Counted from the first letter of the stretch, positions 1,819 to 20,069 are shown. The stretch: 32,000 bases of DNA from Saccharolobus solfataricus (GCF_900079115.1 NZ_LT549890.1:1500001-1532000), one strand, 5' to 3'. The notes: generated from the sequence alone by a model not told the origin. Program-made: numbers and translations.

Positions 1819-2394
1819 CTAATTCTTAAGTTCTTCAGCACATTTCTTCACCTTTTCGTATTCATGACTCCTCATTCCGTGTAGTTTCTCGCTGAACGAG
1901 ACTAGTACTGATATTAGGTCTTCAACTAGTTCTTCCTCTTTCTCCTCTTGGTTTAGTACTACTATTTCACAGCCATGTGCTTTACAAGTCTCCTCTAGGA
2001 TTTCGAAACCGAATCTGACTAGCCTATCTGGGTAAGCAATAACTACGCGTGATACTTCGTTGTTTAATATCATTCTCAGCAATTTCAAGAATCCCTTTCT
2101 CTTCATGTTTAACCCGGAACCTATGTCAGTAATTACTAGGTCGTATTCTTTCACTTGTTCCTCTAAATACTTTACTTGGTTCACTAGCTCGTCTTTTTGT
2201 TTTGATGATACTCTAGCGTAAAGTACCACTTTTCTCCTTTTTACTATTCCCATTAATTTCTCTACGTCTTCCTCATTGAATCTCCACTTTCCGCTCTGCA
2301 ATATGACCGGTTTTATGTATCCTTTCTTCACGTATTCCCTAAGTGTTGGGTAGGATATTCCTAGTCTTTGGCATACTTCCTTTGGTCTTAGCAT
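1819..2394 (-). CDS. IS607-family serine recombinase/transposase (MerR-like HTH plus resolvase catalytic domain)
   Basis: N-terminal MLRPKEVCQRLGISYPTLREYVKKGYI is a MerR-type HTH. It is followed by VVLYARVSSKQ (catalytic serine context) and a resolvase-like core (AYPDRLVRFGF). Confidence 0.8.
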   Translation of the reverse strand: MLRPKEVCQRLGISYPTLREYVKKGYIKPVILQSGKWRFNEEDVEKLMGIVKRRKVVLYARVSSKQKDELVNQVKYLEEQVKEYDLVITDIGSGLNMKRKGFLKLLRMILNNEVSRVVIAYPDRLVRFGFEILEETCKAHGCEIVVLNQEEKEEELVEDLISVLVSFSEKLHGMRSHEYEKVKKCAEELKN

Positions 2395-2543
2395 TATATA
2401 AAAAATTTATAATGAACTAATATAAACTTTACGCTCAATGCGAAACTGTTATCCACGGCGGAATGATTTGCTAAAGGTAGTAGTCGTTTTTATTAAATAG
2501 GGGCTTATTAACGTTAAAAGATTAAAAGGAAAAAATTAGGTAA

Positions 2544-3914
2544 TTATATGACCTTCCTAGCCGTATAAGATATAATCTCGTTCGTAGATGGATGTTGCTC
2601 AGCGAAACTAGCAAGTTGTTTAGCGTTTAGTCCGTAAGCTACTGCCAATCCCAATTCGTTAATTAAGTATTGAGAGTGGACTCCAATCATCCAAGCCCCG
2701 ATTAACCTCATACTTCCCCTTTCAAATATTAGCTTAAGTACGCCCTCTTTCTGTCCGTAGATTTGCGCTGACACATCCTCTTCCATGTTGTATTCCGCCT
2801 CAACTATCTCAATGCCCATTTTTCTAGCCTTGCTAGGTAATATTCCAACATAGGATAGTGAAGGAATCGTGTATATCGTTACTGGTATGCTCTTAACGTC
2901 CACATAATCCACTGGCATTCCATTAGCCATTATGTTGTTTGCTGCAGCTATACTCATTCTCACTGCAGCGTGATAATATGGGGCTAAACCATTTGCGTCT
3001 CCTGTCGCGAAAACATTTGGAATGTTAGTCTTCATTGTCTCGTCGACAACTATCCCAGTCTTGCTTATTGAAAGTCCTATTTCCCTTGCCCCTTCTGGGA
3101 TAACCGGTCTTCTCCCAGCAGCTAACACTACAGAGTTTGTGAAAATGCTCTTTTTGGAACCATCTTTGGTCGAATAAATTACTTCGTACTCATCATCCTT
3201 AATTTTCTTAACTTCAGTTACGGGAGAGTTGAACTTTATGTTAAGTTTAAGTATTGATAGTAAAGTATTGACGATATCTTGATCCTCAAGCGTTATTAAG
3301 GCTCTATCTAGCATTTCTATAATGTGAGTTTGTACACCCATTAATCTAAAGATTGACGCAATTTCGAGTCCTATATACCCAGCTCCTATGATCACCATGT
3401 CCTGAGGTAGCTTTCTAAATGACGTCTTATACCCAAATATATCGTCGCTTGTTAAACAGTATTCAACTCCAGGTAACCTCAGTTTAGCGGTTTCAGCACC
3501 ACTGGCTATTATCATATACCTAGTCTCAGCCTCAATTTCCTTTCCCTCATCCGTTTTAACTATCACGTGGGTTGGGTCCTTAATCTTAACGTATCCCTTA
3601 TAGAAGGTTAGAGTTTCGTATTGGGACATGTTCCTCTTATGCTGCTTGAATCTCAACTCTTGAACGTAATCTTTGCGATCTTGAACGGTTGAAAAATCTA
3701 GGGGGATCTTTACGTTAGCTATGTTTGTAAGTCTCCAGGCAGTTTGTATCACTTCTCTAACTGTCTTAGATGGTACACATCCACTATACAAGCAATTCCC
3801 TCCTAATTCACCTTTGGGATCAGCCATCAATACGTTGTATTTTGCCTTTGCAAGCCTGAAGGCCCCATGATATCCTGCTCCTCCAGCTCCTATAACAACT
3901 ACATCATATTTCAT
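2544..3914 (-). CDS. Class I FAD-dependent pyridine nucleotide-disulfide oxidoreductase (dihydrolipoamide dehydrogenase / MerA-like)
   Basis: GxGxxG FAD fold (VVVIGAGGAG), redox-active disulfide GGNCLYSGCVPSK, second dinucleotide fold VIIGAGYIGLE, C-terminal HPSTNE His-Glu dyad motif. There is no C-terminal vicinal Cys pair, so I do not call it MerA. Confidence 0.8.
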   Translation of the reverse strand: MKYDVVVIGAGGAGYHGAFRLAKAKYNVLMADPKGELGGNCLYSGCVPSKTVREVIQTAWRLTNIANVKIPLDFSTVQDRKDYVQELRFKQHKRNMSQYETLTFYKGYVKIKDPTHVIVKTDEGKEIEAETRYMIIASGAETAKLRLPGVEYCLTSDDIFGYKTSFRKLPQDMVIIGAGYIGLEIASIFRLMGVQTHIIEMLDRALITLEDQDIVNTLLSILKLNIKFNSPVTEVKKIKDDEYEVIYSTKDGSKKSIFTNSVVLAAGRRPVIPEGAREIGLSISKTGIVVDETMKTNIPNVFATGDANGLAPYYHAAVRMSIAAANNIMANGMPVDYVDVKSIPVTIYTIPSLSYVGILPSKARKMGIEIVEAEYNMEEDVSAQIYGQKEGVLKLIFERGSMRLIGAWMIGVHSQYLINELGLAVAYGLNAKQLASFAEQHPSTNEIISYTARKVI

Positions 3915-4284
3915 AATTATAACTATTAGTTATCAAAGTATTTATTATTTTTTCTTGTTTAACAGTATCTAATAACATTCAAACTATGATGAGATTAAAT
4001 ACTTATTCTTCACGTAGGAAAAACGTTGTATAACACTAGAATATATGGGTCTTAGCATAGATGAATATGCGTTTAGTCAATATTTTTACGCAATTACATT
4101 TACTTATTCATTATAACACGAGAAAAATTATTAGACTCTATTTCCATTTTAGGTATTTCGCACACGTTAGACCTCATCGACTTTATCATTATTATTATAG
4201 AATATTTTATCTTTTTAATTAGTACTTCATAATACTGGCTAAATGCTGTCAATTACGCTAATGGTTCTCTTTTTCAATATTAAG

Positions 4285-4291
4285 TTTAAAT
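4285..4291 (+). promoter_or_regulatory. Putative TATA box (TTTAAAT) for the small-ORF/radical SAM/MBL unit
   Basis: TTTAAAT lies about 38 nt upstream of the ATG at 4326. This would give a short leader containing the GGGTGA Shine-Dalgarno-like motif at 4316-4321. Confidence 0.35.
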
Positions 4292-4325
4292 GTAATTAAT
4301 CATATCTAGCCTATCGGGTGAAAAA

Positions 4326-4412
4326 ATGGAGGCAATCCTACAGACCAAAAAGATAGTTGTAATAGAGAGGAAATATGGTAGATGTGGATATTCTCCAAGC
4401 TGGGGAGACTGA
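4326..4412 (+). CDS. Unannotated 28-aa ORF MEAILQTKKIVVIERKYGRCGYSPSWGD; candidate precursor peptide for the adjacent radical SAM/SPASM enzyme
   Basis: ATG at 4326 is preceded by GGGTGA (4316-4321). The TGA stop at 4410-4412 is embedded in TGAGGT, the Shine-Dalgarno-like motif 9 nt upstream of the radical SAM ATG at 4425. The N-terminal half is hydrophobic/basic and the C-terminal half is rich in Gly, Cys and aromatics. It is too short for the supplied ORF track. Confidence 0.5.
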   Translation: MEAILQTKKIVVIERKYGRCGYSPSWGD

Positions 4413-4424
4413 GGTTATCTCCCC

Positions 4425-5609
4425 ATGGCTCTCTCTAAATTCAACCTTTTTATTGGCGATATTCTTTTTAATACCCTTACTGGGTACGCGATTAAGCTGG
4501 AATCATGGGAAATTGAGAAGTTAAGGAAAGGAGTTGTGCCAGAACATTTAAAGGATATAATAGAGGAAGGTTTCTCCGCTACGGATGAGGACTTAGATGA
4601 GGAAATTGAGAAGTTTTTAAGGAAGCCCGTTCTAGAACCTACTCTCGTATTAACTTATAATTGTAATTTTGATTGTATCTACTGTTTCCAAAAGGGGTTT
4701 AGAAAAAACATTTCGGTATCGGATAAGGTTACAAGGGGATTCGTAAACTACATTAGGAAGAACGAGAAAGGTAGGAAGGTAAGGGTAACTTACTTCGGTG
4801 GAGAACCAATCTTACAGCTTAGGAAAATAGAGGAGATATCTAGGGAATTATCTGACTTAAAGTACTCGTTTAGTGTAGTAACTAATGGTTCTCTTTTGAC
4901 TAGAAAGATAGTAGAGAGACTGATTCCACTAGGACTAACTCACGTCCAGATAACGTTAGATGGACCAAAAGAAGTTCACGATAAGAGGAGGTTCTTTGTT
5001 AGCGGTGAGGGTACGTTTGATGTGATTGTGAAGAATCTAAAGGAGATACAAGATATGGTAAAGGTTGTATTGAGGATAAACATTGATGTGAAGAACTTGA
5101 ACGAAATAGGGGAGTTATTAAACGAATTGAAGATGGAGGGAATAAATAGAGTGAGATTAGATCCTCATTTGGTTCATTCAAATGTGTTCAGAAATGAGTG
5201 GTGGGATTTCACAATATCTAGTAAGGCTGAAGGAGATGTTATGGTTAAGTTCTGGGAGATTGCTAGGAAGTATGGATTTGAGGTTCCACAAGACGTGCTT
5301 AGATTAGGGTTATGTGTAGCTTATTCAAGTGAAGACATTGTTGTTGACCCAGAGGGAAACATTTATCCTTGCTGGGCTTTCACTGGAAACCCCCTTTACG
5401 TTAAGGGTAAGCTGGAAGAGGATGGGAGTGTTAAAGTAACTAATAAGTCGTTGTGGTGGAAGGTTAAAATTGAGGATAAGTGTAGGGAATGTCCATTTTT
5501 GCCGTTATGTATGGGTGGTTGTAAGTTCTTAGCAACTATTAATGGAGATGATTGTAAGAGAGAGGCGTATGAAAAGATAGTTAGGTCAATACGTTGGGTG
5601 ATGGGCTAA
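4425..5609 (+). CDS. Radical SAM enzyme with a complete SPASM domain (peptide-maturase / anSME-like class)
   Basis: CNFDCIYC is the CX3CX2C radical SAM cluster motif and YFGGEP is a GGE-like SAM motif. The C-terminal SPASM signature is C-X13-G-X4-C (CVAYSSEDIVVDPEGNIYPC), then CRECPFLPLCMGGC (CX2CX5CX3C) and a further Cys. About 78 residues precede the radical SAM cluster motif and resemble the N-termini of peptide-modifying SPASM enzymes. Confidence 0.85.
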   Translation: MALSKFNLFIGDILFNTLTGYAIKLESWEIEKLRKGVVPEHLKDIIEEGFSATDEDLDEEIEKFLRKPVLEPTLVLTYNCNFDCIYCFQKGFRKNISVSDKVTRGFVNYIRKNEKGRKVRVTYFGGEPILQLRKIEEISRELSDLKYSFSVVTNGSLLTRKIVERLIPLGLTHVQITLDGPKEVHDKRRFFVSGEGTFDVIVKNLKEIQDMVKVVLRINIDVKNLNEIGELLNELKMEGINRVRLDPHLVHSNVFRNEWWDFTISSKAEGDVMVKFWEIARKYGFEVPQDVLRLGLCVAYSSEDIVVDPEGNIYPCWAFTGNPLYVKGKLEEDGSVKVTNKSLWWKVKIEDKCRECPFLPLCMGGCKFLATINGDDCKREAYEKIVRSIRWVMG

Positions 5610-6295
5610 TGGTTAAGGTAGGTAAGGTTAGGATAATGGAGTTATTGGAGCCTGAATTTTTCGGTACTGTACTTAATCACAATATATCTGTTATCGAAAA
5701 TGGTCCTTGTGGGGGATTAATGATGATTGATACTGGCTTACCGGGATATCTCGATCAGATTGAATCCTATCTTAAGGCATGGGGTTATTCCTTGGAGGAT
5801 ATTTCAGATATCGTAATAACGCATTGGCATCACGATCATGCAGGAAACGCCATGGCAATAAAGAGGATAAGTGATGCTAAGATATACGCCCACGTGGATG
5901 AGTTAGGGGATTTGGAAAATCCTCCAAAATACAGCACTATATATAGTGATGAATTAGGGGTTTCTTTACCAGTGTTTAAGAGGACCATGGAGAGGATTAA
6001 CAAGTTACACTATGAACCAGTTAAGGTTGATTTTGCATTAAAAGGTGGTGAGGATTTGGGAGGGTTTAGGGTTATACATGTTCCGGGGCATACAAAGGGA
6101 CATATTGCCTTATTTGATGGTAAGTGTTTAGTAGTTGGCGATGCTGTTAGGAACGTTAGAAATAAATTATCTCCACCCCTTAGAATATTCTCTTGGAATT
6201 ACGAATTAGCAGTGAACTCGTTCAATTATTTAATATCACTTCCCTATACTGTACTAATACCATTTCACGGTGATATCGTAATTAGGAATTTTTAA
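5609..6295 (+). CDS. Metallo-beta-lactamase-fold hydrolase
   Basis: THWHHDHAGN is the HxHxDH motif, with later HVPGHTKGH, VVGDA and PFHGD metal-ligand motifs. The ATG at 5609 overlaps the radical SAM TAA stop (TAATG), indicating translational coupling. The ORF track starts it at a TTG at 5594. Confidence 0.8.
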   Translation: MVKVGKVRIMELLEPEFFGTVLNHNISVIENGPCGGLMMIDTGLPGYLDQIESYLKAWGYSLEDISDIVITHWHHDHAGNAMAIKRISDAKIYAHVDELGDLENPPKYSTIYSDELGVSLPVFKRTMERINKLHYEPVKVDFALKGGEDLGGFRVIHVPGHTKGHIALFDGKCLVVGDAVRNVRNKLSPPLRIFSWNYELAVNSFNYLISLPYTVLIPFHGDIVIRNF

Positions 6296-6298
6296 CCT

Positions 6299-7470
6299 TG
6301 ATGGGGGTTAAGGGATGAAAATCCACTTCCATGAAGGTAGACCCAAAATCTTTTATAAAAAAAATAATGCTAGTTAATTAATATCCAGCTTATAAAGAAT
6401 AATAGAGTAAATTGAATAGTAAGAATTCAACAAATTGAAAGGAAAAATTTTAGGTGAGGAGATCTGTGTTACCAAGAGTGAATTCCAAATGATAATACTC
6501 AACTTTCCCCACCCCAATTCATCAAATAAGGGAAGAAAGGGAGAAGAAGTAGCCAAAACACTCGTCACAGCCGTGGAACGGCTCAATCGAGAACAAGTCA
6601 AAGATGTTCAAGACCTCAAGCCAAACAGTGAGAAACTACGCCGAGAAAAAAGAAGTAGCCGAGAAATTACTCGAGCGAGTGAAGCAACTATCCCTTGAAA
6701 TGCTAAAAGCAGTGAAGAAAGTAAACATATCAATAGATTGGACCACGATAAAGTACCAGACCAATAGAGAGGTTAGGTAGCTCAGAAGATGGATACTCAT
6801 GGAACTACGCAACTGCAACGACAAAACACAACGGGAAAATACTAGCATTCATTGAACAAGAGAAAGGGATGACAAAAGACCGCATAGTCAAGCTACTTAT
6901 TGAATAGATCTCAGTAAACTTGATAACACTTAACGCGGGATTCTACTCAGCAGACGTGTTGAACTTCATCTCCAAGTTCAAGTTGCAGTCCCAGTAGGTA
7001 CCTTGAAAATCCACAACGATTTCGATGAAGGTGAAGAATAGCAAGAGACATAGGAGGTAAAAGCAGGTGAAGTTCAAGTCAATTGTTCAAGATAGGGATT
7101 AGGAGGAAGAATTGAGTACTTCGCTAGGGCCACAAACCTAGATCTACCCAAGGATGTGGTGTTTAGGCTTTACAACAAGGTGAACCCAATAGAGACTTCC
7201 TATAGGAATATCAAGTCGTTTCTCCCGGTTATAAGCTCAACCAAGTTAGCGTTTCGTAAGCTGATGTTCATGATAGCTCTCTACTTCCTCCTCACCATAT
7301 TCAAGGATGTGAAGAGGGAAGACTTTTACTCATCCTTTTATTACATTAATACCGGAGGATAATTCCATATAAAACAAAGGAAACGCTTAATAATCTTACA
7401 GATTTATTTTCAAGGGGGTATTTTGGGTCTACCGGTGAAGGCGGGCTAGTTCACCGTGCTGTCCATGCTT
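6299..7470 (+). mobile_element. Decayed insertion sequence (transposase pseudogenised)
   Basis: A perfect 14-bp inverted repeat, GGTAGACCCAAAAT (6336-6349) and ATTTTGGGTCTACC (7420-7433), brackets a stretch of broken transposase-like reading frames. The outer boundaries are uncertain. Confidence 0.55.
6435..7365 (+). pseudogene. DDE transposase pseudogene (multiple stops and frameshifts)
   Basis: Fragments read LNREQVKDVQDLKP..., MFKTSSQTVRNYAEKKEVAEKLLERVKQLSLEMLKAVKK..., and a C-terminal NPIETSYRNIKSFLPVISSTKLAFRKLMFMIALYF, which looks like the YREK-type block of IS4/ISH3-like transposases. The fragments are spread over several frames and interrupted by stops. Confidence 0.6.
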
Positions 7471-7590
7471 TGAATATTTATATTAGAAAAATTTAAACTT
7501 TTTTATTTAATTAAAAGACTTTAACAGTGTTAAATAGCATTTAGAGTAGTTTAAGATGGTTAAGTATTTATTGGAAAAAGAAGATTAGTA

Positions 7591-8154
7591 TTGTATATGT
7601 GTCTCCTTATAATCAACAATGTTACAAGGCCAATAATTTCAAATGACATTGTATTACTTAGGGATAACAGTTTCAGCAAGGTAAAAGATTACTTAAGGGT
7701 TTTAAGCAGTGATAAGAGGGACGGGGAGATAAGTAAGAGTTATTTCTATTTTATCGTTGATAGACTAAGGAGGATGGAATTACTAATAGATAATGCAATC
7801 GGTTTTAAGGCAATACTTCCCTTTACGGTAAATAACAAAGGGATAAGTTTGAAGGAGGGGATAATGTATATCACTAACGATAAACAGTTGATATATTTTA
7901 ACTATTACGATGCTACATATCAATGTGATAGGTGTTCTATTACAACTTTTTCATGCGTTCCATCACTGAAGAAGATTGCTCGTGAGTTAGACGTTAAAAT
8001 AAGGAGCGATATTCCGGGTATAGCCTGGTATGAGTTATTGGAGGATATTCAACATTATCTTCTCGAGGCATCCATATCTTTAAGAGTAAAGATAAGTGAA
8101 ATTGGGAAATCGTTTGAGGCGATTAAAGTTGGTGAATATGCGAGAGATTTATAA
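7591..8154 (+). CDS. Hypothetical protein, possibly DNA-binding
   Basis: Long ORF with plausible composition. I recognise no motif. A more likely start is the ATG at 7597. Confidence 0.4.
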   Translation: MYMCLLIINNVTRPIISNDIVLLRDNSFSKVKDYLRVLSSDKRDGEISKSYFYFIVDRLRRMELLIDNAIGFKAILPFTVNNKGISLKEGIMYITNDKQLIYFNYYDATYQCDRCSITTFSCVPSLKKIARELDVKIRSDIPGIAWYELLEDIQHYLLEASISLRVKISEIGKSFEAIKVGEYARDL

Positions 8155-8521
8155 ATATTCAATTTTTAGTATCATCATAATGTTTTTAGCATTCTCATTT
8201 GGGCTAGTTAGGGCAATGTATGATACTGTTCAAAATACTTTCTCAACTAGCATATTAATATTTCACATTATCTTTGCAGGGCTCACTGGAGGATTTGGAG
8301 TTTACCTTTACGTTTTAGCTAATAAGACCGGTTTACTATTCCCAAAATTCATTGGCCTAGGCAATTTAGTGTCAATTGGAATAGCTGGGTTTAGTGGTTT
8401 AAGTTACTTGTTAACAAATTACGAGTGGCTCACAAGATTAATGCTTTACGGGTTTGAGTTTTCTTTAGCTTTAACTTCAATGCTTATAGGTTACTTATAT
8501 TGTTTTATGAGATATCGCTAG
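8138..8521 (+). CDS. Small integral membrane protein (about 4 TM)
   Basis: Hydrophobic segments run throughout. The ATG at 8138 (MREIYKYSIF...) is more plausible than the track start at 8096, which overlaps the upstream ORF by 59 nt. Confidence 0.5.
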   Translation: MREIYKYSIFSIIIMFLAFSFGLVRAMYDTVQNTFSTSILIFHIIFAGLTGGFGVYLYVLANKTGLLFPKFIGLGNLVSIGIAGFSGLSYLLTNYEWLTRLMLYGFEFSLALTSMLIGYLYCFMRYR

Positions 8522-8551
8522 ATTTTTTAATTACAATCTTTATTTTCACCT

Positions 8552-8935
8552 ATGGTTGACTATTTGGTTTCAAATGTTAAGGAAGTTAAGATGGATAGAG
8601 TACCAGTTAATGGTTCTAAAAATGCGTTTATTCAATGGTTAGTTACGAAAGAAAATGGTGCTAATTACGCTGTAAGAAAGTTCACCCTATTGAAGGATGG
8701 AATTATACCAATGCATATTCATAAGTACCAAGAGACTGTTATTGTAACTAAGGGGAAATGTAAGGTATGTGTAAGCGATAAAGTTTACGAGCTAAGGGAG
8801 GGTGACTACATTTTTATAAACTCTAACGTAAAACACGCAATTATTAATGAAGGGGATCAGTTGGAGTTTTTCTGTATAATTGATTATTCAGATGATATGA
8901 GGATAATTACATTAGATGAGGATTGCAATAGGTAA
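8552..8935 (+). CDS. Cupin-fold protein
   Basis: Size (127 aa) and motifs [13 protein letters not shown] and [16 protein letters not shown] are typical of the two cupin motifs. Confidence 0.6.
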
Positions 8936-10890
8936 TAGAGGGTTAATTTGAGTCAAAGTACGTCTTTATCAAGTTTTATCCCTTTTTATTTCTAAAACCT
9001 TTCAATTGGCATAAATTCCTTTACAACGGGCGATTTAGGTCTTCTTTGCAACTTGTAATTTGTAACTAATGTAGTTGTAAAAATGTTAATATTGGGAATC
9101 GTGTTTCTCTACTAATTAGTCGTCTTCATTTAGTTAATTTTATAGCTTCTTTGAAATAAAGTGAATTCGCAATGGATATCTGAATCACCCGATTTAACTT
9201 AACTGGGAATTACCTTACGGAAGGTAATAACTCAAAATATGGATTAAAAGAGTTTAAAAAAGAAGTAATTTATCTTTTATATTTTGATCTTGTAAGATTT
9301 AATTACACCCTTGAGCGTGTAAATTATAATTACAGTAGCAGCGAAACCTGCGACTATATCGCCAACTATTCTAAGCCAAACTATCAAATTTAGAATAGGT
9401 TGTAGATAGAATAGTGTACCTTTAGCCGCCCAATAACCTACCCTTAAAACTGTAGCTAATTGAACCGCGCCCAAGGCCCATAAGTCTATTCCTTGAAGTA
9501 TGAAACCGATAGCGTAAATTAATATCATAATTCTTAACGTCTTTAGCTCGTTTTCTTTAATCCCATTGGAGAGATATAATGCTGCAATCCACATTAGAAT
9601 AGCAGTTAAACCCCACACTAATGGGAACGCAAGATGCGCATGGGCCATGGTAAATTGTAACCCATGGACATAATAGTTTATTATTGGAGCGTTCAATATT
9701 GAAGCTCCGCCGATAATCGCACCTACAAATCCCCCTCCAATGGCTGAAATTAAAGTTGTAGCTACTAACGTCTTTTGAAATTCGGTCTTAGCTTCACCTC
9801 TTCTCCACAGCAAAAATGCGTAATAAGTTAAGAAAAGAATAGGGACAACCTCTAATATGGCTGCTGATGCTCCCAAATACATCCAGAATACTGGTTCACC
9901 TCCAAAATAATAGTGATGCGCAGTACCTATCATACCTGAAAGTATTTCGCTAGCGGAATCTATACTCGCTGCCATCGTAGCTAGACTTGGTGGTACTAAA
10001 TTGTTGACAACTAAAAGTATTAATACTACTGGTATTACTATAGAGGGCCAGAATCCCTCAACGAACGAGTGTATCATAATCCATAAGAAGAACTGGTCTT
10101 CGGTGAAGTTAGGCCATGGAGCAATTATTGGTAATGATCCGAAGATTGCACCTATTCCAGATCCCAAGAGACCTATTGCAGTAATTCTCGTTAATGGTCT
10201 TAAAGGTTCCGCGGTTGACTTTGAAGCTTTGAAGAATAATGAAGAGGCTAGAAGGAGTATTAGCGCAACTAGGAGCAACCAGAAGGTACCTTGATCAGCG
10301 TCATTTGGCCTTCCTTGAGCACCGAAAATGAACCAATAGGGTGATGGGATCAATTCATTATAGGAGAGCAATATTCCTAGAAGCAGACCTACTCCGGCAA
10401 ATAGCGTTAAGCCTAAAATTGCAAATGAGAGCTTTCTGGATAAGGGAACACCCAGATATGGTAACGCAAAGATTGAAAAGGCAATCCATGTAAGTGCTAT
10501 CCACACCACTGCCATGTTTAAGTGTAAGGCCCTAGTAATGTTAAAAGGTAGGAAGTTTATTAAACCTAATATTCCCTCTGGGTCTACGTAATAATGCATA
10601 GCCAAATATCCTAACAAACCTTGTATACCCGCGAGGACTGAGGCGAAGAATACTCCTATTAAACCTATCCTTTGTGATGCAGATGGTGGAGGAAGGGGGA
10701 CAGATATTCTAGGATCTCTCCAATGGTCAAGTATTTTTAGACTAACGTAGCTCACCATTGAAACTAAGACCGCTAAAAGGACGATTACCATTATCCACGT
10801 TGATAGACTAACGTTTACGGATGGTTGAGTTTGTTGAGGTATGTAGGGAAAACCATTAGTATAGCCTAGGAGAGAAATCATAGCACCCCA

Positions 10891-10909
10891 TGCAGTGGTG
10901 TTTCACCAA
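10891..10909. repeat. Left terminal inverted repeat of the IS
   Basis: TGCAGTGGTGTTTCACCAA is the exact reverse complement of 12315-12333. Confidence 0.85.
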
Positions 10910-11146
10910 TTTTACTCAAAATGATACAATTTCTATGGAAGAGAAAAATATCAGAGCGGAGTTAGAAAAATCGGCTTATTTCAACACAAGAAGCAAAAAA
11001 TTTTCATATTTGTTGAAGAAACTAACAGAAAACGAGTTTATATATAAAGAGTAATACCATTTGTCTAGTATTATCAATAGAGGAAAGTAGGTGGAAGGAC
11101 GAGATGAACAAGAAAAGGTTAAAGCGAGGGACTCCATAACTCCGTT

Positions 11147-12112
11147 ATGCAAACCATACAAGTATCCAAAACGGAGCTGAAGTCCCTCGCTATAAATTTA
11201 GCAACAATCAATATTAACGTTATCTCTCAAGATCTAGACCCGGAAATAGTGAAAGCAGCGCCATCCTTGCTAACCGGAAACAGAGGAAAATACTACTTGA
11301 AGGTAGTAAGACAAGGCGAGAAAGTAATTAGTAAAGGTCAGAGAACCTTCAAGTTCTACCCAATCTACAGAGAAGTAAAGGGAGAGACCAACGTAGTCGC
11401 TGTAGATGAGACCGGATTAACCGTGGGAGAAAAGGAACAAGAAAAAGCAGAGGGCTTTCTACTCTACAACTGGAAGAGAAAAGGAATAAAGATGAGATCC
11501 TTGGACCTCGTATATCCCTTAAGGTTACCCCTCCTAGTGGAGGTAGCAGATTTGAGAAGCGACAGTCCATCACAGTTCCTACTCAGGAGCGTGAGGGAAG
11601 TAAGCCAATACATGGAAATAGATTACGTTGTAGCTGACGCCGGATTCTTGAACCTAGGGGTCATCAAGGAAATGCCCGTGAAGACCATTGTGAGAGGAAA
11701 GTCGAACTTGAAGGGATTCAAGGAACTATCTAACGTTCCATTAGTTGAGAAGAGATACGAGGTTAAGGACAAGGTTTACGTTGCGTATAGGGTCTTGGAA
11801 TTTGAAGGGCTTTATTATTACGATGTGGTTTACGTTAAGGGAAAGCCGAGGCACTTCATGTTCGTAACGAACTTCGAGGGAGATCCCTATGAACTGGCTG
11901 AACTCTATAGGTTGAGGTGGCAGGTTGAGGAGGGTTTCAAGGTTAGGAAGGCAAGGATAAGGTATGTTAGGAAGTTGAGTAATAAGATCTTCTTGTTCCT
12001 CTATTACACGGTTCTGGATTCTGCGTGGAATCTAGTGAATCATCTTCTCTTTAACTTCAAGTCCACGTGTAAGAAGGTTTTGTCCTTCGATTCATTCGTC
12101 AAGCTTCTCTAA
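11147..12112 (+). CDS. DDE transposase of the IS (IS4/ISH3-like)
   Basis: VVADAGF (Asp context) and YRLRWQVEEGFKVRK (the Y-R-E-K block typical of IS4-type transposases). It occupies most of the IS between the inverted repeats. Confidence 0.8.
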   Translation: MQTIQVSKTELKSLAINLATININVISQDLDPEIVKAAPSLLTGNRGKYYLKVVRQGEKVISKGQRTFKFYPIYREVKGETNVVAVDETGLTVGEKEQEKAEGFLLYNWKRKGIKMRSLDLVYPLRLPLLVEVADLRSDSPSQFLLRSVREVSQYMEIDYVVADAGFLNLGVIKEMPVKTIVRGKSNLKGFKELSNVPLVEKRYEVKDKVYVAYRVLEFEGLYYYDVVYVKGKPRHFMFVTNFEGDPYELAELYRLRWQVEEGFKVRKARIRYVRKLSNKIFLFLYYTVLDSAWNLVNHLLFNFKSTCKKVLSFDSFVKLL

Positions 12113-12314
12113 CTTTCTCGGTGTTCAGAGGAGACTATGCACGTCGTTTTCACCACGTGAGAAAAATTCAGAATTCTCCTCTTATTATTAGAATTGTACG
12201 CTATATTTTTTGCAAATTATTTTAACATGTTATGTTTCATAATAATTTTATTGTTTTTCTCTATATCAATCTCTTTTTGAAAGTGCTAATATTATATCTT
12301 TCAAATGAAATAAT

Positions 12315-12333
12315 TTGGTGAAACACCACTGCA
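12315..12333. repeat. Right terminal inverted repeat of the IS
   Basis: TTGGTGAAACACCACTGCA is the exact reverse complement of 10891-10909. Confidence 0.85.
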
Positions 12334-13557: not shown

Positions 13558-14925
13558 TTATCGTAGATCACCTCTAGGTTTAAATCTTGCATTAAATGAA
13601 AATTGTTTCTGAAACGCGTACTCTGCCCTATGCTTAGGGCATCTCTCCAACCATTCATCTTCACAAGAAGCCCCCTTTTCAATCATTATTTTCTTAACAT
13701 GATTAAGACTTTTCCTCGAACCTATTGGTGCTCCACAAACCCTACATCTAACTAATTCATCGCCCACTAATTTCCTTACCTCTTTGTTAACGCTTTTACT
13801 CTTTTCCACCTTAATAACCTTAGTAAGAGATGCTATATTTGGAGGAATCTCACTTGTTTTACCTTCTTCTAATTTGCACGATTCTGGGCAAACATTGACG
13901 CATATATTACAGCCTATGCATTTCATGGGATCAAAGTCTATTTCTTCCACTCCACTACTCCTTCTGAGCATTATTGCTGATGTGGGACACCAATTAACGC
14001 AGCTTTCACATAAAGTACATCTGTTATTATCAATACTCACATCAAATAATATGTATGGCAATTCATCACTTATGTTCCTTCTAGCCTCAGCCCTATTGTA
14101 AAATGATTGTGGAGTAGTATTTAGTTCCTTTGTCTCTTTTGCCTCAATTTTTTCAGATGGGGAATAAAAGCTGATTCCTCCTATTCTCTCATTATATTCC
14201 TTGATCACTTCAATGAAATCTTTTAGATTATCTTGTAATTCACACCCTACGCATTCAAAGGTTAAATTCCCACTGCCTCTCAATAATACTATGTCTACCT
14301 CCGATAGCATTGCTAGACAAGGTATCTTGACTCCTCTATTTTTAGTATTTCTATAGCATGTAATCCTCTTTTCCCCTTTTACCTTTGCTAACTCAAAAAT
14401 CGAATTTTGAGAAAGTGATGGAAATTGTATAGCACTAACTGGGCATGAAGCAACACATAGACCACAAGACGTACATTTTGTGTAATCAATATTTACTCCA
14501 GTTTTCTTATCAACTTTAATAGCGTTGTAAGGACATGAAAACTCACATACATTACATGCCTTATATAAGCCATTACAATATTCGCTAAGGTAAATTGGCT
14601 TGTCAACCTTTTTAGCCTTTTTTACTTCTCCGCGTAAAAGACTTCGTCTATCAATGGATTTTATCTCTTCAACTGGAGCTAAATCTGCTAGCCAAGCGTT
14701 TTCTAGAACTACTTTGTTGTATTCTACCTCTTCCTTACTACTATCCTTGCCAACTATTCTTACCAGCAAGGGGTTTAGCTCTAGATCTTCTGAAATTTTT
14801 TCCCTATTAATTCCATCTCCTATAACGACTAAGGCTTTGGTATTAATGTTTTCCTTTTTCAACTCAGATGAGGGCAAAACATCTACTCGGTATTTAATAA
14901 GGGGTGAATAAAAAAGGGATGTCAT
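13558..14925 (-). CDS. Polyferredoxin, at least four 4Fe-4S motifs (SreD-like)
   Basis: Cys motifs [33 protein letters not shown] and [12 protein letters not shown], plus extra Cys pairs. It starts 6 nt after the stop of the membrane-anchor gene. Confidence 0.75.
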
Positions 14926-14931
14926 ATGACT

Positions 14932-16227
14932 TCACTTGAATATAAGGTGTCTTGGCTTTTCATCTTCTTCTAATGGTAATAGTATTACGCCCAATGTGTA
15001 AATCCCAAGTAATAGTAGTACTGAGCCAATGAAGAACACTATATCGTAGAACGATATATTAAATGGCAGGTGCGTCCACGATGGACCGTTATTGAAAATG
15101 CTGCGCAATTCGTAAACCCAGTTGGAATTTGATGGAGATATTGGTGAGACTGAATAATACCACGTTATTGATTGAGGTATAATATCAGCAATCGTAATTA
15201 TCGAGAACATTCCAAGTAATGTGAATATCGAAGATGTTACTAACATATGGCTACTTCCCCTCTTATATACAAGCCCGTAAAGGATTATTGGAATTATCAC
15301 ACCAACTAGTACTCCACCTATTAGAAAGACTACACTATATGGCCCAGAAATCATAAGCTCTGCCCAAGCTGAAGTTTGCTGATTCGTTGCTGTTAACCAT
15401 AACCACCACAGTAGTGAAAAACCTACTGCTATCGTAGCTAATACACCGTCTCTTCCTAGTATTTTATACATTTCATGTATACTCAAACTATTCGGATCTT
15501 CTTTAACTTTTCTAAATCTATTATATAACGGAGTCATAAATGATAACATCGCAATACCGGAATAGAATGATAATATGACGAATAACATTGACATGAATGG
15601 ACCGAACTCGTAGACCCATGTTGATAAGTAGCCGAATACTGAGCCTAAGTTCGCATCCAGTATTAACTCCATTAGTATTGCATAGCCAACTATTAATATC
15701 AATACTGATTTAGATGATAGCCAAGCCAAGAGTCTACTAATAGGGTCCTTATATTCCCTTCTCTTCTCCCCTATTAATGCTAGTATTTCTAGAATTATAC
15801 CAATACCCACAAGTGCGTACAATAAACCGTTCCAAGCTATTCTTGAGGTATCTCTAAAGCTCGTGTAAATATAGACAGCTTCTCCAGGCTTATAAGTTGA
15901 TGCAAAGACCATAATCCAGCCCGGTATTAGTACAGTTAGTGCTATCCACTCGTTTCTTAATGAGATATTCTTAAACGGATTCTTTTCTGGATGATTCTTA
16001 TTAAACAGTTCATATAGTGAATTGTAAGTGCTAACGCCAGTACCTATAACTCCGAAAAACATATAGCCAATTACTAAAAGTCCCCAAGGTATTGGCTCGT
16101 CATTAGGCTCAGTAAATGTCACTAGGCCATTAGCCCATGACATGGGATTAAAGCTCATACCGTAAAGTAATATCCCTCCTCCAATTATTATGAATATTAT
16201 AGTCCAAGCTAATAGGAATTTATTCAT
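14932..16227 (-). CDS. NrfD/PsrC-type polytopic membrane anchor subunit (SreC-like)
   Basis: 431 aa and hydrophobic throughout. Its start overlaps the FeS subunit stop (ATGA, 16224-16227), the usual position in complex iron-sulfur molybdoenzyme operons. Confidence 0.7.
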
Positions 16228-16910
16228 GAGTTACCACCTCCTCCCCTACCCAACTGCCTATTAAACACGTAAAAAACTTTAGGTTGAACGTTTAATTCCG
16301 GATTCAACACTACTGCTTGCCCAGTATTAACTAATATACTAACCTCACTATTAGGATCATCAAGACACCCAAATACTCTGGCATGACCCGGACAAGTTCT
16401 TACACATGCAGGAGTATAAGTGCCTTCTGGGGCTGTACCGTAGCAGAAAGTACATTTATCTACGTGAGGAACCACGTGAATTGAATTCAATCCAAAATAC
16501 TCCTTGGACTTCTCAATATCCTCGTAAGTGTAGAAGTATCTAGCACCATATGGACATGCCTCAACACAGTAAAGACATCCCATACATTTATACTCGTCAA
16601 CCACTACAATACCTCCAGCAACAATTTGGGTAGCGCCAGTTGGACATACATAATAACATGGCGGGTTTTCACATTGCATACACAATCTAGGTACGAAGAC
16701 TCTCTGAGTGTTGGGATATTCTCCTAATTCTAGATCTTCAACATGAGTTCTAAATAGACCTCGCCAGAATGGCGTTTGATTCTCTATTGTACACGCAGCA
16801 ACACAAGCATCACAGCCTAGACATTGGTCTACCTTAACCACGAATCCCCAGTGTTTACAAGGTTGAGTATTCCCAAATTGTATATATGGGTTTGAAACTT
16901 GTGTGGACAT
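16224..16910 (-). CDS. Four-cluster 4Fe-4S electron-transfer subunit (DmsB/PsrB/SreB family)
   Basis: Four ferredoxin-type groups: [37 protein letters not shown] and CTFC…CVRTCP. A GGTGATC Shine-Dalgarno motif lies between the catalytic subunit stop and its ATG. Confidence 0.85.
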
Positions 16911-16916
16911 GAGGGA

Positions 16917-19900
16917 TCACCCTAATGTGGAAACATTACCGTATGAGACGTATTGTTGCCAATCATTTTGAGAAGCGGAATTGTTAGGAGTGGTAACTTT
17001 AGCCTGCTGTGAAGGTAATGTGTCTGGAGTTTGCACACTTGCCAATTGTGTTGCAGCTTGAATCTCATCAGACGTCGCTTTTCTAACCCTAACAGTGAAT
17101 TGCTCATTCATGTGATAACCACCTAAAGGATTTCTACCTGGTGCCCACATTACTGATACTGGCTGATTGCCAAACTCGTTTACAGCTTTGGTTGCAGTAG
17201 TTAATGCTGGGTTCCTTTGACCAAAAGGCTCTGGTACTCCTATTGTATCTGGTCTTATCCACTGAGTCAAATGGGCCCTAACAATTAGTTTAGGTATGCT
17301 ACCATCTGGGTTTGGTAATTTCCATCTTTCGATAGCGATCCAATCTCCTTCGTTAATTCCTAATTGTGCTGCAGTAGTTGGATTTATCCAAGCCCTCATT
17401 AAGATATCTTTATGATAACTATTAGAAGTAATAGCCATCAACAGCGGATTGTCAGCGCTAGACGTGTAAGCGAATTGTGGGATCTTATACTCTATGAAGA
17501 AGAGTTCTGGTGGTGTTGGTTTAAACGTTGGATAGTTATATGGTGTTGGTGGTGAGAGATAAACGCCATCTTCAACTGCATAACCTCCATTCCAATTTGG
17601 TGGTATTTCAGCTATTATTGGATCCCATACTGGGTCATATCCATAATTCTGTATAACGTAATAGTATAATATAGTTGAATATATCTCAATTCTACCAGTT
17701 GGAGTTGCAGCTGGTAAGTCCCATGGTATTCTTTCATGGTTTGCAAAATAATCATCAACAGTCTTAATTACAATCACACCATTATTTCTTAAGGTTTGCA
17801 ATATTTGCTCTTTAGGCATGTTTAGTTCCTCTGACAATACGCTAAGTTGAGCCTCTCTCCACGCTTTAGCTGTGAAACTACCCCATTGTGGATAACCGTT
17901 ATTCTTCATTAAATATTGTTGATAATTGGGCATCTCTTGTTGTATAACTGACTTTAATATATCTAAAGGTACCCCAGCGAACCTAGCCATCCATTGTATA
18001 TAGGCGTCTCCAGCTTGTGGATTTAACATGTACGCAAACATTATGAATAAATCCAAACCATTTGCGGTATTAGGCCATAACACTGGTATTGTTTGCCATC
18101 TGCCCCTAATTGCCCTATCCATGGCTGGGCCATCATCCCAGAAGAATTCATCTCTTTCTAGATAAGTTACATCCGGTAAAATCACATCTGCATATAAACT
18201 AGCCTCTGTCGGTAGTATATCTATCATAATGTAGAATGTGGTCTCCAACACTTGTTTATACTCATCCCATTTGAAGTTAAATGGTGAACCTCCATAGGAC
18301 ATTGCAACTTTAGGTTTATAGGGTTGGCCATTCCAAGTAACTTGTCCCTTAATTGCGGCATATGATCCCGATTCTTCAAATAACGTATAAGCTCCAGCTG
18401 GTTTCTTCCCTTGTTGCTTTAGAACTTGATTATAGGCATAGCTAAGTGCTGGAACACCAGTTATCCAGAATGAAGGGTTGTTATAAACATATATGATAGG
18501 AAACATGGCGAAGAAAGCTCCTGGTAATTCATTGACTGGTAGTTGTTCCAATACCTCAGGCCTTTGTAATAATATACCAGGCTTCGTCTTCCCACTACTG
18601 ACCATGTTATTATAAGCATTTACCACTTTCTTAATACCTTCTCTATAAACTGCAGAGTACACCCAACCTCCTCTAATGTCTATGTTACCAGTTAACGCCA
18701 TTATAGTTGCGTAAGCTTTTCTAAATTGTACAGCTTGATCGTTGAAGAAACCTTTTAACCCGGTAATTATCGTCATTGGTTTCATTGTTGCAATTCTAAA
18801 TGCTAACTCTTGAAGTTGTGATAGGGGAACGTCTGCAACTTGAGCCGCGTATTCGAGCGTATAATTACTAACTTTTTGTGCTAGGAATTGGAATACTGTT
18901 TGTACTTGTTTACCATTATAAGTTAAACCTTGAGGAGCGTTTAATGCTGGCTTGATAAAATTACCATTAACGTCGTATTTATTAGTATTTGTAAACGGTG
19001 GTACCTCTATAATTTGCCCACTTATCTCATCGTAAACGTAATATGCCTTTACAGTACCATCATCATAATCTTCCTCTAGTAATTTAACAACATCGTTTTC
19101 TTTATAGGCTAAGAAGGGAGCATTAGTGTAATACCTTACAAACTCGTCATCATAATAGTTATTTTGGATTAAGTAGTTAATAATAGCCATGGCAATATAA
19201 AGATCAGAACCAGGTTTTGCTGGAATCCATAGATTAGCCTTAGATGCGGCTTCAGACATCCTGGGATCGATTGCTATAACATACGCACCGTTTTCTATAC
19301 CTTTTGCATACCTTATTGCCCTATTTACGAATATTCCTGCAGGGATTCCACTGGTACCCCACGCAACTATTAAAGAAGAATACGTCATATCATCCATCAT
19401 ATCAGTGGCATGTAGATCGAATCCACCTATTACGAAACCTATTGGCACTTGATCACTAAATAAGCACGTTTGCATCGGAGTACCATTTATATTAGGTATT
19501 TGTGTACCTAGAGTAAACGGAATGAAATAGGGCTTATAATTTGCACATGGTATTCCACCCCCAATTAAAAGGAATTCGTATGGTTGTGGATTCAATTGTT
19601 TTATGTTCTGCATTATGTAATTAATTGTCTCCTCCCAAGTGGCCTCTCTAAAACTCCAAGTACCTTTTGGACCAGTTCTAATTAGTGGTGTCTTAAGCCT
19701 ATCTACATTGTAAGTTCTGAAAATCCCAGCTCTTCCTCTAGGGCAAACTTTACCCTCATTTAGAGGTGAAAGGGGATTACCATCGATTTCGAGAGCTCTC
19801 ATATAACCATTTATATATTCAGTTTCCACTAAAATGTCACAAGTTGACGAACAAAACGCGCATATACTGGGTACATAGGAATACTGCCAACCCGGTTGTA

Positions 19901-20069
19901 ACTCTTCATCATTTACGGCATCCCGTGTGACGAATATGTTAAAATTATATTTTGATGCAAAATAACCAAGCCCCATTACAAGACCGGCTGCGGCAGAAGC
20001 TTTCAAGAAGTCCCTTCTATTCAGTCTAAGACCTTTATTTTCTACCATTATGTTACTATCGTAGTTCAT
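16917..20069 (-). CDS. Tat-exported molybdopterin (bis-MGD) oxidoreductase catalytic subunit, sulfur/polysulfide/thiosulfate/tetrathionate reductase-like (SreA-like)
   Basis: Twin-arginine signal [17 protein letters not shown]-terminal FeS motif CAFCSSTCD…VCPRG (CX2CX3C…C). 1050 aa with a molybdopterin oxidoreductase-like layout. The C-terminal Ser/Thr/Gln-rich tail is unusual. Confidence 0.8.

Follow-up and report, generated by a model that had tools for sequence, protein, structure and literature searches.

A short peptide gene with a conserved core and its radical SAM/SPASM enzyme in Saccharolobus solfataricus: a candidate peptide-modification system shared by Sulfolobales and Thermoplasmatales

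We analysed a 32,000-nt stretch of DNA from Saccharolobus solfataricus (the window), in which a compact unit, first set at positions 4285-6295 of the + strand, had been predicted to combine a short open reading frame (ORF), a radical S-adenosylmethionine (SAM) gene with a SPASM region and a gene of the metallo-beta-lactamase (MBL) fold. We found that the short ORF encodes a peptide whose C-terminal core is conserved at the protein level across two archaeal phyla, and that this peptide is strictly paired with a radical SAM/SPASM enzyme of the peptide-maturase class. The unit is probably a system of the ribosomally made and post-translationally modified peptide (RiPP) type, composed of a 28-aa precursor, a dedicated radical SAM/SPASM maturase and, in Saccharolobus, also an MBL hydrolase. 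That the peptide is the substrate of the neighbouring radical SAM enzyme we consider highly probable. The maturase of the window is identical to the gene on CP033235.1 and to AAK41779.1 of S. solfataricus strain P2, and the three reading frames are packed in the sequence just as originally predicted:

4326-4412, + strand: precursor-peptide gene, 28 codons plus TGA, encoding MEAILQTKKIVVIERKYGRCGYSPSWGD (ATG at 4326, TGA at 4410-4412)
4326-4382, + strand: codons 1-19, basic leader of the peptide
4383-4409, + strand: codons 20-28, conserved core C-G-Y-S-P-S-W-G-D of the peptide
4425-5609, + strand: radical SAM/SPASM peptide maturase, 394 aa (AAK41779.1 in P2)
5609-6295, + strand: MBL-fold metallo-hydrolase, 228 aa, its ATG at 5609 overlapping the TAA stop of the radical SAM gene (TAATG)

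Seven orthologous loci with a full-length radical SAM gene were fetched through the enzyme only (the window, L084, L086, L087, L088, L104 and L105); they derive from Saccharolobus, Metallosphaera, Acidianus (two species), Sulfurisphaera and two Thermoplasmatales. In each of the seven, an ORF of 23-28 codons ending in RC[G/N]YSPSWG[D/E/N/Q] is present upstream of the radical SAM gene, with 1-19 nt between the end of the ORF and the start of the enzyme. The encoded peptides are:

S. solfataricus (window): MEAILQTKKIVVIERKYGRCGYSPSWGD
Metallosphaera tengchongensis: MQATKKLLRIERRAGRCGYSPSWGE
Acidianus hospitalis: MQRKVVKLERKIGRCGYSPSWGE
Sulfurisphaera javensis: MKAVKVVKIERKMGRCNYSPSWGQ
Acidianus manzaensis: MNSPKVVKIQRKTGRCNYSPSWGQ
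Acidiplasma: METIERKVLKVERKACRCGYSPSWGN
second Thermoplasmatales contig: MKTTTEVKIVKLDRKLCRCGYSPSWGN

Over the last ten residues, variation is confined to position 21 (G/N) and position 28 (D/E/N/Q), although the enzymes themselves are only 50-66% identical. Cys20 is invariant, with a second Cys two residues before it in the Thermoplasmatales peptides, and all 11 distinct peptides have Tyr22 and Trp26. The calculated monoisotopic masses are 3226.663 Da for the unmodified 28-mer of the window and 970.349 Da for its core CGYSPSWGD. The leader varies in length and follows a pattern of a conserved Lys, a hydrophobic strand and then E/Q/D-R-K/R-x-x-R. Of the eight residues that are invariant in R-C and Y-S-P-S-W-G, seven are encoded by differing synonymous codons, one Ser switching between TCN and AGY, which indicates selection on the protein and not on DNA or RNA. 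The original prediction had tied its case to an ORF with a G-R-C-G-Y-S-P-S-W core being kept upstream of orthologous enzymes, and such an ORF is indeed kept. One might still suspect a chance open frame in AT-rich intergenic DNA, as 70 ORFs of at least 20 codons overlap positions 2500-9000; the conservation of the protein across genera and phyla, the synonymous substitutions and the fixed place beside the enzyme refute this explanation, to which we give practically no weight.

The pairing of peptide and enzyme is also seen when the peptide is taken as the starting point. A degenerate DNA pattern for the core led to 12 metagenome loci, ten of which carry the orthologous enzyme directly downstream (for L096, the fetched locus holds its 5' part only); as these loci were chosen by the core pattern, they are evidence for pairing and, to the disadvantage of our argument, not for conservation. 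The other two loci (L091 and L094) are deletion variants which keep the peptide gene and the first 49 maturase codons; about 2.95 kb present in L095 are missing from them. The core motif occurs in one copy in the window. The peptide gene has never been annotated; a protein catalogue with about 15 billion predictions does not include its sequence, which also matched no family in Pfam and NCBIfam searches. Upstream of a few distant bacterial relatives of the enzyme there are candidate short ORFs (unverified) with different, Cys-containing sequences and nothing resembling YSPSWG. In the Thermoplasmatales maturase records P0023 and P0024, the annotated start (MQVW/RLFTKLGKL...; L104 7001-7040) is over-extended. 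The extension is the peptide core region read in another frame, so that the peptide gene is hidden in the annotation.

The enzyme has the following parts, of which the first was delimited in an AlphaFold2 model:

about aa 1-65 (4425-4619), + strand: putative N-terminal domain resembling a RiPP recognition element (RRE)
C80-X3-C84-X2-C87: CX3CX2C motif of the radical SAM cluster
aa 297-377 (5313-5555), + strand: seven-Cys SPASM region, C297-X13-G311-X4-C316, C353-X2-C356-X5-C362-X3-C366 and C377

The CX3CX2C motif and the seven-Cys SPASM signature are as the original prediction described them, and all ten cysteines (three of the radical SAM motif and exactly seven in the C-terminal part) are invariant in 20 orthologues. 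In Pfam, the Radical_SAM family was matched with E 6.9e-21, whereas the SPASM match stayed under the gathering score (16.7 vs 21.5 bits) in spite of the complete Cys motif. The best NCBIfam models are all peptide maturases, namely geopeptide (TIGR04280, 241.4 bits with a curated cut-off of 400), CefB (NF038107, 216 with 600), TIGR04463 (172 with 525), Clo7bot (TIGR04334, 162 with 600) and PapB (NF047865, 148 with 340); further matches include DynA (103), SCIFF (TIGR03974, 97 with 425), QhpD (TIGR03906, 89 with 453), the anaerobic sulfatase-maturating enzymes (anSME; TIGR03942, 87 with 349) and YhhB (68). Since the best models are peptide maturases and all scores are below their cut-offs, we place the enzyme in the maturase class and in no named family.

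The best relative of solved structure is CteB, the thioether-forming SCIFF maturase, both in a profile search (E 1e-26) and in a Foldseek search with the AlphaFold2 model (E 1.6e-17, the alignment running across both proteins), with anSME in second place. The proposal of a SPASM maturase with its precursor peptide in Sulfolobales is thus supported, the enzyme grouping with RiPP maturases and CteB. CteB has an RRE at its N-terminus, and the Cys of its substrate is bound at an open site of an auxiliary cluster (PMC8172795). In the AlphaFold2 model of our enzyme (mean predicted local distance difference test score, pLDDT, 71.7) residues 7-65 form a beta-beta-beta-alpha-alpha-alpha N-terminus, and the profile alignment begins within the N-terminal domain of CteB (query 26 to CteB 47). 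Judging by the model, the N-terminal domain of the maturase is probably RRE-like. A fused RRE, if real, would account for the absence of a separate PqqD/MftB-like gene; of the predicted lack of a PqqC/PqqD/MftB-like partner, what holds is that there is no stand-alone gene, as the role of PqqD or MftB is probably filled by the enzyme's own N-terminal domain.

Orthologues of the maturase at 49-89% identity were found in Saccharolobus, Metallosphaera, Acidianus, Sulfurisphaera javensis, Sulfuracidifex (Sulfolobus) metallicus, Candidatus Aramenus, Acidiplasma and other Thermoplasmatales, and the next relatives are bacterial, at 31-34% identity. A profile scan of genome contigs gave, among the matches listed, one Sulfolobales locus and 79 distant relatives, and neither a pattern scan of viral contigs nor a tblastn search of plasmids revealed an orthologue on mobile elements. 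The Sulfolobales locus of the profile scan is from Stygiolobus sp. CP850M (L001 6001-6659) and holds the C-terminal half of the maturase only (residues 181-391, with a frame change near 327); no YSPSW-type ORF was found anywhere in this 12-kb locus, which looks like a decayed remnant of the peptide-maturase system.

It could be argued that the small ORF is a regulatory upstream ORF encoding an arrest or attenuation peptide, and that the true substrate of the enzyme is a protein or a tetrapyrrole. The stop of the ORF overlaps the Shine-Dalgarno-like motif of the enzyme gene and could couple translation, and AhbC/AhbD-like radical SAM genes lie in a divergent operon in Metallosphaera and in L092. 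The public names of the maturase, apart from the neutral 'radical SAM protein', include 'heme biosynthesis related protein' and 'arylsulfatase regulator', which would fit such a substrate; the S. javensis orthologue is labelled 'geopeptide radical SAM maturase' in one public record. However, the anSME, AhbC and AhbD/NirJ models gave 61-87 bits versus 148-241 for the peptide maturases, Pfam assigned none of the called genes to a sulfatase family in the loci with gene tables, and the N-terminal domain aligns with the peptide-binding RRE region of CteB. Moreover, conservation is concentrated in the C-terminal core of 9-10 residues, with a leader of variable length, which is the pattern of a RiPP precursor. 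We regard a regulatory role as very unlikely. The outcome that the original prediction had named as a threat, an enzyme clustering with anSME beside a sulfatase, did not materialise, given the anSME score of 87 against a cut-off of 349 bits and the lack of a sulfatase family among the called genes of the loci with gene tables.

For the RiPP-type system we envisage the following course of events. The basic, strand-prone leader (KKIVVIERK.GR) would dock onto the RRE-like N-terminal domain, the core C-[G/N]-Y-S-P-S-W-G-[D/E/N/Q] would enter the active site, and the CX3CX2C cluster would cleave SAM, the resulting 5'-deoxyadenosyl radical taking a hydrogen from a core residue. Cys20, probably held on an auxiliary cluster with three protein ligands, could then close a thioether macrocycle onto a downstream residue, the best acceptor candidate being the acid or amide residue at the C-terminus (i+8), i.e. 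Cys20 to residue 28. The MBL hydrolase would serve for accessory tailoring or trimming, being kept beside the pair in some lineages, and a 185-aa protein encoded further downstream may regulate the locus. Only seven C-terminal cysteines are invariant, which should leave one auxiliary cluster with an open site like that of CteB; this open site, together with the invariant Cys20 and the affinity to maturases of Cys peptides, is the reason why a thioether is preferred. The ring from Cys20 to residue 28 is a guess based on the C-terminal D/E/N/Q, as acceptors of this kind serve PapB and QhpD (PMC8172795, PMC7876137). We tentatively favour a cross-link that involves Cys20 as a thioether, at a probability that we would put slightly short of one half.

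The same peptide and enzyme could also make use of other chemistry, namely a C-C or C-O cross-link on Trp26 or Tyr22 in which Cys20 is not the nucleophile. For example, W-G-[D/E/N/Q] or Y-S-P might form a three-residue cyclophane, or the link might resemble that of streptide or darobactin. The invariance of Tyr22 and Trp26 agrees with it, W-G-X (X being D, E, N or Q) would fit the aromatic-X-X pattern of the cyclophane-forming maturases (triceptide family), and DynA and YhhB are among the NCBIfam matches (103 and 68 bits). The stronger matches, however, act on Cys peptides (geopeptide 241, CefB 216, TIGR04463 172 and PapB 148 bits), as does CteB, and Cys20 is invariant as well, with a second Cys being added in the Thermoplasmatales. 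On balance, we find a C-C or C-O link unlikely, if the foremost competitor of the thioether.

Several observations weigh against a thioether-forming RiPP system. An invariant Tyr and an invariant Trp in the core are typical sites of radical SAM C-C cross-links, and the locus has no conserved protease or exporter nearby. The maturase scores below the curated cut-off of every named maturase family, and its chemistry is therefore not transferable from a characterised enzyme. The RRE assignment falls in a part of the model (residues 1-65) with pLDDT of 40-68, and a Pfam search at E<=1 with the first 72 residues of the maturase found no PqqD/RRE model. Finally, transcription, translation and modification of the peptide are inferred.

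When compared with known systems, the archaeal pair resembles SCIFF, i.e. CteA-CteB of Clostridia (PDB 5wgg, 5why), in that a short conserved peptide is located beside one enzyme with radical SAM and seven-Cys SPASM parts and an N-terminal RRE (probable in the archaeal enzyme), and in that there is no dedicated protease or exporter. It differs in the low identity to CteB (about 20%; TIGR03974, 97 vs 425 bits), in the peptide (SCIFF has about 45 aa with six Cys, the archaeal peptide 23-28 aa with one invariant Cys and invariant Tyr and Trp), in its archaeal host and in the MBL hydrolase and 185-aa protein that recur as neighbours. The geopeptide and CefB families, both bioinformatic, provide the top models, which span nearly the whole enzyme including the N-terminal domain, yet the scores of 241 and 216 bits compare with cut-offs of 400 and 600, and the nearest bacterial relatives are 31-34% identical. 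PapB, the maturase of the ranthipeptide PapA, which links Cys to the beta-carbon of Asp in thioethers, is the closest biochemically characterised maturase in the list of models (148 bits). Its acceptors are carboxylates, and Cys-X3-Asp is strictly required (PMC8172795). The C-terminal residue of the archaeal peptide, always D, E, N or Q, is similar to these acceptors; on the other hand, the PapB score is below the cut-off of 340, the spacing would be Cys-X7-X instead of Cys-X3-Asp, and there is one Cys instead of six repeats.

The layout also recalls that of pyrroloquinoline quinone (PQQ), whose cluster likewise combines a very conserved short peptide (about 25 aa) with a SPASM enzyme and a gene of the MBL fold. 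The original prediction had pointed to PqqA/PqqE/PqqB and to MftA/MftC of mycofactocin, and of this likeness only the layout of peptide, SPASM enzyme and MBL protein stands. A conserved E-X3-Y is missing from the peptide, the 25 best models for the enzyme do not include PqqE, the MBL protein has no PqqB match by model or by fold, the putative RRE-like domain is fused rather than separate, and no PqqC-like gene was found in the gene tables returned for related loci. As for mycofactocin, the peptide ends in W-G-[D/E/N/Q] and not in Val-Tyr, and MftC (TIGR03962) is not among the 25 best models. A further comparison is with quinohemoprotein amine dehydrogenase (QHNDH), in whose gamma subunit QhpC the cysteine tryptophylquinone (CTQ) pair is Cys37/Trp43 and a thioether made by QhpD is Cys41-Asp49 (PMC7876137). 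The Cys-X5-Trp and Cys-X7-Asp spacings recur as Cys20/Trp26 and Cys20/X28, which is a resemblance only, and QhpD is also a SPASM radical SAM enzyme, making Cys-to-Asp/Glu thioethers. In contrast to the 28-aa peptide, QhpC is an enzyme subunit (leader-bearing crosslinked precursor of about 14.9 kDa; PMC7876137), the QhpD model scored 89 vs a cut-off of 453 bits, and no QhpA, QhpB, QhpC, QhpG or QhpE genes are present in the window or related loci. The unit is not a PQQ, mycofactocin, anSME or QHNDH system, as peptide motifs, family scores and partner genes are all wanting.

By analogy with PQQ, mycofactocin and CTQ, the modified peptide could nevertheless give rise to a small redox cofactor or a metal ligand and not to a secreted product; hydrolysis or hydroxylation at later stages would then fall to the MBL protein and, where present, a U32 protein. 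Such a role would be consistent with the extreme conservation of the core over two archaeal phyla, the single copy of the motif in the window, the lack of conserved exporter, immunity or protease genes in the examined loci and the linkage of the MBL gene in three arrangements, and the U32 families include prephenate-dependent hydroxylases (TrhP, a weak match). The QhpC-like spacings (PMC7876137) point the same way, but the match is a single one, at the level of coincidence, and the models for the cofactor enzymes are far below those for peptide maturases (QhpD, 89 vs 453 bits) or not listed (PqqE, MftC). In addition, the MBL protein has a generic hydrolase fold and no PqqB match, U32 is broad and occurs in many genomes devoid of the pair, no candidate cofactor-dependent enzyme is conserved nearby, and the patchy occurrence in Sulfolobales would be unusual for an essential cofactor. 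We find a cofactor precursor quite improbable, and the same applies to its bolder version, a new peptide-derived redox cofactor or metal-binding group of thermoacidophilic archaea, e.g. Cys-Trp (CTQ-like) or a Cys/Tyr quinone, with horizontal transfer between Sulfolobales and Thermoplasmatales. Caldariellaquinone, a tyrosine-derived benzothiophene quinone, is general to Sulfolobales; the peptide as its precursor was rejected, because the peptide system is patchy and also occurs in Thermoplasmatales.

Returning to the RiPP-type system, a conserved cellular role is to be expected from the extreme conservation of the core, its single copy in the window and the missing export, immunity and protease genes. 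In these respects the peptide is closer to SCIFF, PqqA and MftA than to antimicrobial RiPPs, and a core conserved over two archaeal phyla points away from a strain-specific antibiotic. Literature searches on the core motif, on 'geopeptide', on RiPP with SPASM and Sulfolobales, and on SSO1566-1568 returned nothing relevant, and no report of a radical-SAM-modified ribosomal peptide from Sulfolobales was found in the searchable literature. We propose that peptide and enzyme form a new precursor/maturase family within the radical SAM RiPPs, one that is shared with Thermoplasmatales and is the first well-supported family of its class found for Sulfolobales. It would work in a manner similar to SCIFF/CteB or the ranthipeptides, yet it fell outside every family with which it was compared, and its peptide is unrelated to theirs. 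Uncharacterised pairs of peptide and SPASM enzyme are common in bacteria; the archaeal pair is unusually well delimited, with a core invariant over phyla. The system is small (peptide, enzyme and one or two accessory genes) and thermostable by origin, and its hosts S. islandicus and S. solfataricus are genetically tractable. The structure of the product would add a new precursor/maturase family, and possibly a new cross-link, to radical SAM peptide chemistry and would give a first handle on the role of such peptides in thermoacidophiles.

The third gene of the unit encodes a protein with a Pfam Lactamase_B match (E 2e-31) and an HxHxDH motif. Its AlphaFold2 model (pLDDT 94.9) has TTHA1429, B3 lactamases, glyoxalase II-like proteins, lactonases and PqsE as the nearest folds, and PqqB was absent from its 25 best NCBIfam matches and top 50 structural matches. 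It is a generic small hydrolase and not PqqB-like; the PqqB resemblance noted originally persists at the level of the superfamily, and neither models nor fold extend it further. The orthologues of the MBL protein form a narrow family, with 39 clusters at E<=1e-20 that, where named, all belong to Sulfolobales; a further group at 44-46% identity includes P0154 from the same Thermoplasmatales contig as the radical SAM protein P0024, and a last match is at 36%.

The MBL gene is arranged in three ways. In Saccharolobus (the window, L093, L098 and L101) it follows the enzyme on the same strand, its start overlapping the stop of the enzyme gene. Metallosphaera, L092, Acidiplasma and L104 have it in divergent orientation, as the second member of a U32-MBL pair whose genes overlap, and in L095 and L100 it is divergent and alone. 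Adjacency kept through such rearrangement indicates a functional link with the peptide-enzyme pair, though not an obligatory one. Two findings count against its belonging to the system: in A. hospitalis, A. manzaensis and S. javensis the surrounding 6-7 kb hold no MBL gene, and S. ohwakuensis and Sulfolobus sp. A20 carry U32-MBL with neither peptide nor enzyme within 8 kb. The last two organisms are not named among those with maturase orthologues. The MBL gene is a facultative neighbour of the peptide-maturase pair and its product a putative accessory enzyme, and for its acting on the same peptide we see an even chance. The expectation that orthologues would keep both a short ORF upstream and an MBL gene downstream thus came true for the ORF, in all seven enzyme-anchored loci, and not for the MBL gene.

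The U32 family is broad in archaea and is no dedicated partner of the pair. As U32 proteins are common in archaeal genomes that have no peptide-enzyme pair, U32 as a dedicated leader protease was rejected. In other Sulfolobales, at L084 (1462-5791, - strand), L092 (851-4752, - strand) and L103 (6145-10590, + strand), U32-MBL is followed by two further radical SAM genes, one AhbD/TIGR04053-like (354 bits) and one AhbC/NirJ1-like (318 bits), both below cut-off, and in Sulfolobus sp. A20 a gene for a UbiE-type methyltransferase precedes the U32-MBL pair. The U32-MBL-radical SAM set looks like a separate conserved operon, perhaps related to tetrapyrroles or quinones, from which the MBL member seems to have moved to a place behind the maturase in Saccharolobus.

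The predicted end of the unit at 6295 had to be corrected, since a conserved partner gene is located further on, beyond the remnant of an insertion sequence (IS):

6336-7433, no strand assigned: decayed IS with 14-nt perfect terminal inverted repeats, GGTAGACCCAAAAT / ATTTTGGGTCTACC
7597-8154, + strand: 185-aa protein with a CxxCx6C motif and no family assigned (SSO1568 in strain P2)

The 185-aa protein is 32% identical (E 1e-25) to the product of a 178/179-aa gene that directly follows the radical SAM gene in Metallosphaera and A. hospitalis, and a homologue is convergent in L092. It had no Pfam, NCBIfam or PDB match; from the appearance of its sequence we guess that it may be a regulator of the locus. 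The family is multi-copy in Sulfolobales, and paralogues 37-39% identical to the copy of the window (L084 11564-12145, L090 1401-1904, L096 3818-4321 and L099 191-694) sit 4-6 kb from the peptide-maturase pair in contigs of Metallosphaera and of the A. hospitalis type. The decayed IS between the MBL and 185-aa genes holds only fragmentary transposase ORFs of the DUF4322 type, with weak matches, and has no counterpart in L093, L098 and L101, relatives of 86-89% identity, in which the gap between the two genes is 0.42 kb; in the window it is about 0.9 kb longer. The IS is not part of the peptide system, but displaces the 185-aa gene and splits the cluster in the genome of the window.

The putative control elements of the unit are:

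4285-4291, + strand: TTTAAAT, TATA-box-like as read from the sequence, about 35-41 nt before the ATG of the small ORF
4317-4321, + strand: GGTGA, Shine-Dalgarno-like, 4 nt before the same ATG, presumably serving the small ORF
4410-4415, + strand: TGAGGT, in which the stop of the peptide gene overlaps the Shine-Dalgarno-like motif of the radical SAM gene, whose ATG (4425) comes 9 nt further on

The TTTAAAT box is kept in the 86%-identical relatives L093, L098 and L101 and is the putative promoter of a transcript of the peptide, radical SAM and MBL genes. At this position, TGAGGTGA recurs in Metallosphaera (L084) and L092. A scan of the whole window with Rfam found no RNA family, which leaves an explanation by an RNA element without support. 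A scan for sigma-70 promoters and intrinsic terminators gave fewer sites than in shuffled sequences and is uninformative for an archaeal host.

Elsewhere in the window, the gene divergent from the peptide promoter (within 1819-3914, - strand) encodes a flavoprotein of the dihydrolipoyl dehydrogenase type (NF004943, 668 bits; not MerA), and beyond it there is an IS607-like serine recombinase with a MerR-type helix-turn-helix (1819-2394). An operon at 13558-20069 (- strand), unrelated to the peptide system, encodes a TAT-exported molybdopterin oxidoreductase (1050 aa), an NrfD-type membrane subunit and a multi-4Fe-4S protein, and also holds an unclassified 228-aa ORF (16224-16910). Finally, an IS of 1.44 kb (10892-12330), with a DDE_Tnp_1 transposase ORF at 11147-12112 and a 9-bp target duplication, splits a NorB/COX1-like gene which is intact (706 aa) in CP033235.1 (L081). 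The IS is absent from that record, and the window therefore represents another strain or isolate.

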